64,000 bases of DNA from assembly GCF_050920415.1 (NCBI RefSeq), contig NZ_CP169309.1. One strand, written 5' to 3'. Within the stretch, counting starts at the first letter, position 1. The number at the start of each line of letters is the position of its first letter. Source of the DNA: Escherichia coli. Lineage in GTDB: Bacteria; Pseudomonadota; Gammaproteobacteria; Enterobacterales; Enterobacteriaceae. The notes beneath the pieces are model-generated. The model saw only the letters and a list, made by a program, of their open reading frames with translations, had not been told where the DNA came from and did not search any database. Of this stretch, positions 4,582 to 28,938 are shown piece after piece. Made by a program: the position numbers and the translations under genes.

Positions 4582-4604
4582 CTGATTGAGATAATGAATA
4601 GATG

Positions 4605-27466: not shown

Positions 27467-28483
27467 ATGTCCACATTACGCCTGCTCATCTCTGACTCTT
27501 ACGACCCGTGGTTTAACCTGGCGGTAGAGGAGTGTATTTTTCGCCAGATGCCCGCCACGCAGCGCGTTTTGTTTCTCTGGCGCAATGCCGACACGGTAGT
27601 GATTGGTCGCGCGCAGAACCCGTGGAAAGAGTGTAATACCCGGCGGATGGAAGAAGATAACGTTCGCCTGGCACGGCGCAGTAGCGGTGGCGGCGCGGTG
27701 TTCCACGATCTCGGCAATACCTGTTTTACCTTCATGGCTGGCAAGCCGGAATACGATAAAACGATCTCCACCTCGATTGTGCTCAATGCACTGAACGCGC
27801 TCGGTGTCAGCGCCGAAGCGTCCGGACGTAACGATTTGGTGGTGAAAACCGCCGAAGGCGACCGTAAAGTCTCAGGCTCGGCCTATCGCGAAACCAAAGA
27901 TCGTGGCTTCCATCACGGCACCTTGCTACTCAATGCCGACCTTAGCCGCCTGGCAAACTATCTCAACCCGGATAAAAAGAAACTGGCGGCGAAAGGCATT
28001 ACGTCGGTACGTTCCCGCGTGACCAATCTGACCGAATTGCTGCCGGGAATTACCCATGAGCAGGTTTGCGAGGCCATATCCGAAGCCTTTTTCGCCCATT
28101 ATGGCGAGCGTGTAGAAGCGGAAATTATCTCCCCGGACAAAACGCCGGACTTGCCGAACTTCGCCGAAACCTTTGCCCGCCAGAGTAGCTGGGAATGGAA
28201 TTTCGGACAGGCTCCAGCGTTCTCGCATCTGCTGGATGAACGCTTTACCTGGGGCGGCGTAGAACTGCATTTCGACGTCGAAAAAGGCCATATCACCCGC
28301 GCCCAGGTGTTTACCGATAGCCTCAACCCCGCACCTCTGGAAGCTCTCGCCGGACGACTGCAAGGCTGCCTGTACCGCGCGGACATGCTGCAACAAGAGT
28401 GTGAAGCGCTGTTGGTTGACTTCCCTGAACAGGAAAAAGAGCTACGGGAGTTGTCGACGTGGATAGCGGGAGCGGTACGGTAA
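27467..28483 (+). CDS. lplA: lipoate-protein ligase A
   Basis: 338-aa ORF matching K-12 LplA. Confidence 0.95.
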
Positions 28484-28514
28484 CTCGCTGATTAAAATAT
28501 CCAGGGAAGGAAAT

Positions 28515-28778
28515 ATGATCGATCTGAAGAACCAGGAACGGGAGATTATCAATTTAATGTTCAGCCAGGGTATATCCTGGCTAACCGCCGTGCGTATCAG
28601 GCATAAACTATCACTTGCTGAAGTTAGTAAAATGTTGGGTATCTCGATTAATTCTCTAAAACAAATCGAAAAGACGGAACGGCTTAGTTCAAACATCAAA
28701 AACAAAATGGCAGGAATTTATGGTTGTCCGCCAGAGTTGCTGATATGCCCTTACTGGATGACGGCTGAACATAAATGA
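28515..28778 (+). CDS. hypothetical XRE-type HTH protein (87 aa), strain-specific
   Basis: ORF with a good ribosome-binding site (ggaaggaaatATG) directly after lplA; predicted HTH segment LSLAEVSKMLGISINSLKQIEK; lies in an AT-rich segment at the position where K-12 carries yjjJ on the opposite strand. Confidence 0.5.
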   Translation: MIDLKNQEREIINLMFSQGISWLTAVRIRHKLSLAEVSKMLGISINSLKQIEKTERLSSNIKNKMAGIYGCPPELLICPYWMTAEHK

Positions 28779-28787
28779 ATAGTTTCG

Positions 28788-28876
28788 TGAATAGATACTC
28801 GAATGGATTTAATTTTCTATCCATATGAAAAATAATAGTAAATCTATAAATCAGTCGCTATTGATGAATAGATACT
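28788..28876. repeat. two exact copies of the 12-mer TGAATAGATACT in an AT-rich spacer
   Basis: TGAATAGATACT at 28788-28799 and 28865-28876; a third partial copy TGAATAG at about 28775. Confidence 0.5.
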
Positions 28877-28906
28877 AAAAAGCCGGAGCGGTCTCCCGCT
28901 CCGGCT
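28877..28906 (-). terminator. intrinsic terminator downstream of deoD (end of the deo operon)
   Basis: agccggagcgg-tctc-ccgctccggct hairpin; on the minus strand it is followed by TTTT, 30 bp after the deoD stop. Confidence 0.7.
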
Positions 28907-28938
28907 TCACACGACAATCGCCTTTCAGCGAAACACAA

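Follow-up and report, generated by a model that had tools for sequence, protein, structure and literature searches.

A hipH-locus allele of Escherichia coli with a small, putatively antitoxin-derived helix-turn-helix gene beside a conserved box array

In Escherichia coli K-12, the gene yjjJ (hipH) is located between lplA and deoD, on the deoD strand. Its product, HipH (YjjJ), is the subject of work on persistence, to which it has been linked as a toxin kinase and DNase. What stands at this site in a strain without the kinase gene, and where did it come from? The question is raised by a stretch of 64,000 nucleotides of the E. coli contig NZ_CP169309.1 (RefSeq assembly GCF_050920415.1), called the window here, in which the lplA-deoD spacer, 28484-28938, is a 455-bp segment encoding an 87-amino acid (aa) helix-turn-helix (HTH) protein. 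A sequence-only reading of the window had given the K-12 arrangement correctly and had suggested that the kinase gene was replaced or deleted at a variable locus. We consider it likely that the segment is an allele of the hipH locus, in which the hipH frame was swapped for an antitoxin-derived HTH gene and the control array of hipH was left behind.

The K-12 locus and the window have in common the lplA-deoD site itself, a deoD-proximal region of about 165 bp with four AGTATCTATTCA boxes, and the deoD terminator; the arrays of the window and of yjjJ-type E. coli have diverged by about 18%. K-12 has, in addition, a monocistronic 1332-bp open reading frame (ORF) for a HipA-family Ser/Thr kinase with an N-terminal HTH, whereas in the window an HTH gene of 264 bp, unrelated to it, runs on the other strand. 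A tblastn search with YjjJ in an identical RefSeq locus (L002) gave no match, and no HipA_C kinase ORF was found there between lplA and deoD. The alignments place the replaced stretch between the lplA stop codon and the position of the hipH start codon, which bears out the suggested replacement of the kinase gene.

The features that had been read from the segment were recovered (Table 1). Its GC content is 0.396, falling to 0.248 in the 3' part, compared with 0.561 for lplA and 0.517 for deoD, and a very AT-rich stretch of about 100 bp lies between the 87-aa ORF and the terminator hairpin. The HTH gene is on the lplA strand and is preceded by a purine-rich, Shine-Dalgarno-like stretch, GGGAAGGA. 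It is followed by two exact copies of the 12-bp repeat TGAATAGATACT and then by a hairpin, 28880-28907, which folds on the deoD strand with -29.9 kcal/mol (z = -4.9). Since this stable fold is trailed by a U-run (the A-run 28877-28881 on the + strand), it is the deoD terminator.

What are the 12-bp repeats? Shuffling the segment 5000 times with its dinucleotides preserved gave an exact direct repeat of at least 12 nt in just 56 cases (1.1%). The two copies belong to a four-box array, with three tandem boxes at a 12-bp period and a fourth located 77 bp from the middle box. The sequence-only reading missed boxes 1 and 3, which are degenerate in the window (TGAATAGtT and cGAATgGAT, respectively); several E. 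coli alleles likewise have degenerate boxes 1 and 3, or have lost one 12-bp unit. It also missed that 28770-28938, all four boxes included, is 81-84% identical to the interval that separates deoD from the hipH start codon in yjjJ strains, where the hipH ATG lies 1-3 nt beyond the proximal box. The same array was found directly upstream of hipH in E. albertii, Citrobacter, Kosakonia, Pseudocitrobacter, Leclercia, Silvania, Salmonella, Cedecea, Erwinia tasmaniensis and Winslowiella, taxa whose HipH is 48-94% identical to that of E. coli. Between the middle and the distal box, 10 of 11 hipH loci keep a distance of 76-78 bp, and the sequence in this interval is scrambled. In lplA-deoD spacers and flanks from 73 species, the exact 9-mer core TGAATAGAT occurs 25 times in 22.6 kb of spacer and not once in 611 kb of flank. 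The single extra copy in the window, at 4595-4603, has no array around it; 0.35 would be expected by chance. Judged by this conservation, the array of AGTATCTATTCA boxes is a cis-element of the hipH 5' region that is old and has been maintained by selection.

Two exact 12-mers near a replacement junction could also be the mark of the rearrangement itself, a target-site duplication or a recombination footprint, and a scar was one of the two meanings first proposed for them. Both copies, however, stand to one side of the replaced gene, within sequence that the unreplaced yjjJ allele has as well. Because the same boxes with the same spacing stand upstream of hipH in distant genera, in genomes that never had the HTH gene, we read the boxes as a hipH cis-element and reject a scar. 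A known RNA element in the array was rejected too, as Rfam gave just a sub-threshold chance match on the terminator; the RNA folds of the array are unremarkable (z of -2.6 and -1.2). We found no description of the box array in the searchable literature. It is a candidate operator of hipH, sharply defined, and the most useful by-product of this analysis.

The comparisons show the following history for the segment. The ancestral order in Enterobacterales is deoD, its terminator, a region of about 165 bp with four AGTATCTATTCA boxes, and hipH; of the boxes, one is beside the terminator, and the other three form a tandem run that stops 1-3 nt short of the hipH ATG. Over the whole distance between its start codon and the stop codon of lplA, the hipH frame has been replaced by an AT-rich gene on the opposite strand, and the box array has stayed in place, so that it is now 3' of the HTH gene. 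The boxes would be putative protein-binding sites controlling hipH transcription, with the N-terminal winged HTH of HipH or a conserved host factor as candidate binders. The 87-aa protein would be made by read-through from ytjB-lplA and, if active at all, would be a solitary repressor-type DNA binder, independent of the boxes. The stretch from lplA to the HTH ORF has no terminator-like site that we could find, and neither a promoter of its own nor a CTTATAT/ATATAAG palindrome was found in the 31-bp spacer before the ORF; transcription of the HTH gene likely originates from the lplA side.

The replacement seems to have happened once. HTH homologues with 44-49% identity are present at the same site in Superficieibacter, in the metagenome-assembled genome UBA3516, in Salmonella enterica and in one further lineage. 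The HTH ORF ends in a TGA that doubles as the opening triplet of the proximal box, in the window and in every other lineage examined. Because this stop-in-box junction is common to all of them, the HTH allele would have a single origin, followed by divergence. Salmonella enterica is dimorphic at the site: some genomes (L099) have hipH with the full array, and others (L111) have the small HTH gene with the array almost gone.

How common is the HTH allele? Among 5426 complete E. coli genomes, the full 455-bp segment is present in 4037 (74%) and yjjJ/hipH in 1346 (25%), and the two alleles are essentially mutually exclusive. The yjjJ of K-12 is therefore the minority allele, contrary to the norm that comparison with K-12 had implied. 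The exact allele of the window is uncommon, with 170 genomes at least 99% identical to it. The locus as such is an old, very common allelic alternative and not an oddity of one strain. Other, rare arrangements were also seen. In CFT073, which has hipH, an IS200C element (L003, 2186-3063) is inserted between the box array and the deoD terminator and parts the distal box from the terminator. The HTH gene is deleted in HS-02. WB61 (L110, 1449-1640) has a rare internal deletion of hipH that leaves the first ~140 nt, the part coding for the N-terminal HTH; this remnant overlaps the 3' end of lplA and is called by PGAP as a partial 'transcriptional regulator' pseudogene.

Between the allele classes within E. 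coli, the array differs by 20-24%, and lplA and deoD by about 1-5%, with no excess between classes. The two alleles are far older than the strains that carry them, the difference between them having been confined to the cassette by recombination. Raised flank divergence between the classes, a signature of balancing selection, was not seen outside the cassette.

What kind of protein does the HTH gene encode? Its Pfam matches are weak but consistent (HTH_3, i-Evalue 7.8e-5; Sigma70_r4, 1.7e-5; also HTH_19, HTH_25 and HTH_31), and it is matched by the PADLOC profile HTH_VI (1e-5) and by phrog_7241 (2e-9). RefSeq labels it 'helix-turn-helix domain-containing protein'. The AlphaFold2 model, with a predicted local distance difference test score of 90.3, has an extra helix at residues 4-18, followed by helices at 22-29, 34-41, 45-54, 59-69 and 73-76. 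The best fold matches by Foldseek are CylR2, C-proteins of restriction-modification systems, 434 Cro and the N-terminal domain of SinR, with target-normalised TM-scores of 0.6-0.76 and root-mean-square deviations of 1.6-2.2 Å over 53-60 residues. In contrast to these small XRE repressors, the 87-aa protein has the added helix 4-18 and a C-terminal CP-x-W tail, and no palindromic operator was found for it. By its profile matches and its predicted five-helix fold, with the HTH in helices 2-3, it is a member of the XRE / Cro-C1 HTH family, as the sequence-only reading had proposed.

The closest relatives outside the locus are proteins of 118-122 aa, with 30-38% identity over residues 10-77, whose genes directly follow RelE/ParE toxin genes in three independent replicons, a Serratia plasmid, a Leclercia plasmid and the Pasteurella phage Pmp14. 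In hhalign, the 87-aa protein was aligned with residues 51-121 of the 122-aa Pmp14 protein, encoded downstream of a RelE-like toxin, with 98.3% probability (E 1e-14). With HigA/HigA2-like antitoxins it has in common an A-x-R motif and an (I/V)Y-x-C...L tail. Its start aligns with residue ~50 of relatives of 118-129 aa, so the N-terminal ~50 residues are absent, which by analogy with HigA2 would be the part in contact with the toxin. Because the family aligns just to the C-terminal 70 residues of its relatives, we regard the gene as a 5'-truncated derivative of a HigA-like antitoxin gene that retains only the DNA-binding domain.

There is no cognate toxin gene beside the 87-aa ORF: lplA ends 31 bp before its ATG, and the array and terminator are downstream. 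This toxin-less context holds in the other genera too. RelE/ParE modules carry CTTATAT/ATATAAG palindromes upstream of the toxin gene, and these were not found at the HTH gene of the window. As read from the DNA, the locus thus falls short of a functioning toxin-antitoxin pair in its toxin, its N-terminal segment and its operator. HipB, the antitoxin of hipBA, which is similar in size (88 vs 87 aa), belongs to the same XRE fold class and has a thematic link to a HipA-family kinase locus, was considered as a relative. HipB structures are included among the PDB chains, yet HipB was absent from the PDB matches at E values up to 10; phmmer and a profile search gave CylR2, sigma-70 and others. With no specific sequence similarity, no adjacent kinase in the window and an ancestry of the RelE/ParE type, a HipB-like identity was ruled out. 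HipB has been reported to rescue YjjJ toxicity in trans (PMC9948734). Descent by inversion from the N-terminal HTH of HipH was rejected as well, since the gene is on the opposite strand, an XRE fold stands against a winged helix, and tblastn found no similarity. The idea of an orphan antitoxin-like regulator therefore survives as ancestry from a RelE/ParE-associated antitoxin, and not as a working pair or a relative of HipB.

Is the 87-aa gene still active in E. coli? The commonest E. coli HTH allele has a CAA-to-TAA nonsense mutation at codon 50 (Q50*), together with four perfect boxes. It is flagged 'internal stop' in 4 of 4 annotation records checked, to one of which 6 more rows are sequence-identical. 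An allele at least 99% identical to a checked Q50* record is carried by 1697 of the 5426 genomes, and by this near-identity about 31% of complete E. coli genomes probably carry Q50*. Frameshifted and truncated variants are also common. The ORF is intact in the window and in representatives of O157:H7, O145:H28, B-type and ST131. Because Q50* is so frequent, the gene appears to be dispensable in E. coli and to be decaying in a large clade.

One might then regard the E. coli ORF as a functionless remnant drifting to loss, with nothing in the segment active. The nonsense, frameshifted and truncated alleles would be expected from such a remnant, as would the deletions in HS-02 and E. whittamii and the degenerate or shortened arrays. 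The substitution pattern argues otherwise. The homologues have reached saturation in synonymous divergence (dS) from E. coli, at 1.3-2.4, and the ratio of nonsynonymous to synonymous divergence (dN/dS) lies at 0.14-0.32 within Escherichia as well as between genera, so the 87-aa protein has been under purifying selection between genera. In addition, an alignment of 8 sequences, some from genera whose protein is just 40-45% identical to that of the window, has 23 invariant columns. With the intact ORFs of the strains named above, this makes a mere remnant unlikely.

What binds the boxes? In our preferred history, in which the array is a left-over of hipH, an obvious candidate is HipH itself: the helix (I/V)SQAT(F/L)SR of its N-terminal winged HTH is as invariant as the boxes, and Gerdes et al. 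have proposed that this HTH binds DNA (PMC8262856). Several observations weigh against parts of this history. Chromatin immunoprecipitation with exonuclease digestion (ChIP-exo) of myc-tagged YjjJ in K-12 gave zero binding sites (PMC8464067), which counts against autoregulation by HipH, although the result could be explained by toxicity, the tag or the growth conditions. A simple sigma-70 scan called no consensus promoter upstream of hipH in K-12, E. albertii or Salmonella, or on the - strand of the window. Furthermore, the boxes are kept in three HTH-allele lineages (Escherichia, Superficieibacter-like and UBA3516-like) despite saturated dS. Such retention suggests that the array has some role even where hipH is missing, and a pure left-over would leave it unexplained.

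The retained boxes might be the operators of the 87-aa protein, which would then be an orphan antitoxin-like autoregulator with the TGAATAGATACT repeats as its own sites, the second meaning first given to them. That the boxes adjoin the gene, that they persist with it in those three lineages and that the protein has antitoxin-domain ancestry would fit. The array is older than the gene, however, being upstream of hipH as far away as Erwiniaceae, and it is 3' of the HTH gene. Its boxes are asymmetric direct repeats, whereas the related RelE-type modules have palindromes. The predicted recognition helix varies by genus (ISINSLKQ vs ITPDALKR or ITPESLAR) and the boxes are constant. Finally, the two can be found apart: Salmonella (L111) and one other lineage (L090) have an intact HTH gene with the array down to one degenerate box, and the Q50* alleles of E. 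coli have four perfect boxes. The evidence leans against a need of the 87-aa protein for the boxes, and we think such autoregulation distinctly improbable. Nor do the boxes resemble the native operators of the HTH relatives, which are CTTATAT/ATATAAG palindromes with no such box.

A related idea is that the two alleles are functional alternatives on one operator array, HipH restraining its own promoter by its N-terminal HTH on the AGTATCTATTCA boxes, and the XRE protein having been retained for its binding to the same boxes in trans. If this were true, the HTH allele would be an 'anti-addiction' or immunity allele, silencing an incoming hipH or a residual hipH promoter firing antisense into lplA, and the site would hold a trans-species polymorphism of toxin versus silencer. 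Because the boxes are retained in three hipH-less lineages despite saturated dS, the idea is kept alive, as a very unlikely one.

A conserved host regulator, such as a mediator of cyclic di-GMP (c-di-GMP), could also use the boxes, and the array would have been kept because that factor is still at work there, for instance controlling antisense or read-through transcription where lplA and deoD converge. The negative ChIP-exo result for YjjJ (PMC8464067) and the array kept without hipH in three lineages are consistent with this, as is the finding that c-di-GMP acts at the hipH promoter, for which no factor was named (PMC11452175). In the sampled loci and the window there is no sign of a regulon, however, the 9-mer being confined to the spacers apart from its one other occurrence in the window, and the boxes decay or vanish once both genes are gone. 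Nor was the motif of a known E. coli factor matched. The tor box CTGTTCATAT (PMC9239176) has only 6 of 7 core bases in common with CTATTCA, with a G-to-A difference that never varies, and a period of 12 bp would be atypical for it; TorR is not supported. We regard a host regulator as possible, if rather doubtful, and retain the displaced hipH array as our explanation.

How old is the hipH arrangement, and what else occurs at the site? The lplA-deoD spacers were surveyed in 73 species. In Erwiniaceae, hipH follows deoD although lplA is elsewhere, and because of this the arrangement is ancient, with repeated losses since. The spacer is shorter than 110 bp and without a box array in 50 of the 73 species, including a Kosakonia (L024) with a single decayed box. 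Gene-less remnants with decayed boxes were seen in two Kosakonia species and in Phytobacter. The 76-bp 'empty' spacer of E. whittamii (L006) has TTGATGAAT fused to TAAAAAGCC. Because the terminator here is fused to one half of the distal box, the site is a deletion derivative and not one that was never occupied. In other genera of Enterobacteriaceae (L031, L034, L036, L060, L062, L069, L083), unrelated single genes fill the spacer, the cargo being a lipoprotein, repetitive extragenic palindromic (REP)-associated tyrosine transposases, fimbrial-like proteins, a YjdF-like membrane protein and a 406-aa secreted protein. We take the convergent lplA/deoD junction to be a general insertion hot spot.

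The coordinates of the features are collected in Table 1. Among them is a conserved block in the spacer between the tandem boxes and the distal box, which we infer could serve the hipH promoter as a -35-like element. The consensus promoter scans called nothing at this block, and an extended -10 picked by eye is likewise a mere candidate. The yjjJ promoter is among the targets of a published Reg-Seq study (PMC12133099).

Table 1. Features of the lplA-deoD interval in the window, with the evidence for each
Feature	Position	Strand	Evidence and remarks
lplA, lipoate-protein ligase	27467-28483	+	338-aa ORF; annotated lplA in identical RefSeq locus; left cassette boundary
31-bp spacer with purine-rich, Shine-Dalgarno-like GGGAAGGA at 28504-28511	28484-28514	+	Read from sequence
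87-aa XRE-fold HTH ORF, RefSeq WP_000566247.1	28515-28778	+	Pfam, AlphaFold2, hhalign, dN/dS, RefSeq CDS
Box 1 (proximal), TGAATAGtTTCG on + strand, 1 mismatch to 9-mer core TGAATAGAT	28776-28787	-	Aligned with hipH upstream regions
Box 2 (middle), exact TGAATAGATACT, reading AGTATCTATTCA in hipH sense	28788-28799	-	Best-conserved tandem box
Box 3, cGAATgGATTTA, 2 mismatches in window allele	28800-28811	-	Perfect in commonest E. coli allele
Conserved spacer block TGAAAAATAATAGTAAAT	28826-28843	-	Aligns with CT(T/A)TAC(A/T)TTTCA block of hipH upstream regions
Distal box, exact TGAATAGATACT, 77 bp from box 2, abutting deoD terminator	28865-28876	-	Repeat search; conserved spacing
deoD intrinsic terminator, 12-bp GC-rich stem 28880-28891 / 28896-28907	28877-28907	-	100% complementary inverted repeat; right cassette boundary
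deoD, purine-nucleoside phosphorylase, 239 aa	28939-29658	-	tblastn and annotation

Two further observations were made. Antisense to the HTH gene and the array, there are ORFs of 87 aa (28442-28705, - strand) and 42 aa (28696-28824, - strand). One antisense frame is seemingly conserved in other genera, apparently a side effect of conservation in the sense frame; this strand would be transcribed if the old hipH promoter were still active. The lplA of the window differs from that of other E. coli by 3.5-5.3% over the first 717 bp and by 6-8.7% over the last 300 bp (28184-28483), far above the divergence among the other strains compared, and the 87-aa protein of the window is 97% identical to a cluster with a representative named E. 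marmotae. The strain, or the lplA tract, may be a divergent or introgressed lineage.

What does the locus mean for the biology of HipH? The 87-aa gene is, on the comparisons made here, a solitary antitoxin-derived XRE regulator, often inactivated, of a familiar kind, and represents no new system. The control of HipH activity has been stated to be unknown (PMC8262856), and the conserved four-box array is a concrete candidate operator to fill this gap. Three quarters of the sampled complete E. coli genomes are without hipH and have the HTH gene instead. This allele split matters when results on HipH-dependent persistence from K-12 or uropathogenic E. coli are extended to other strains.

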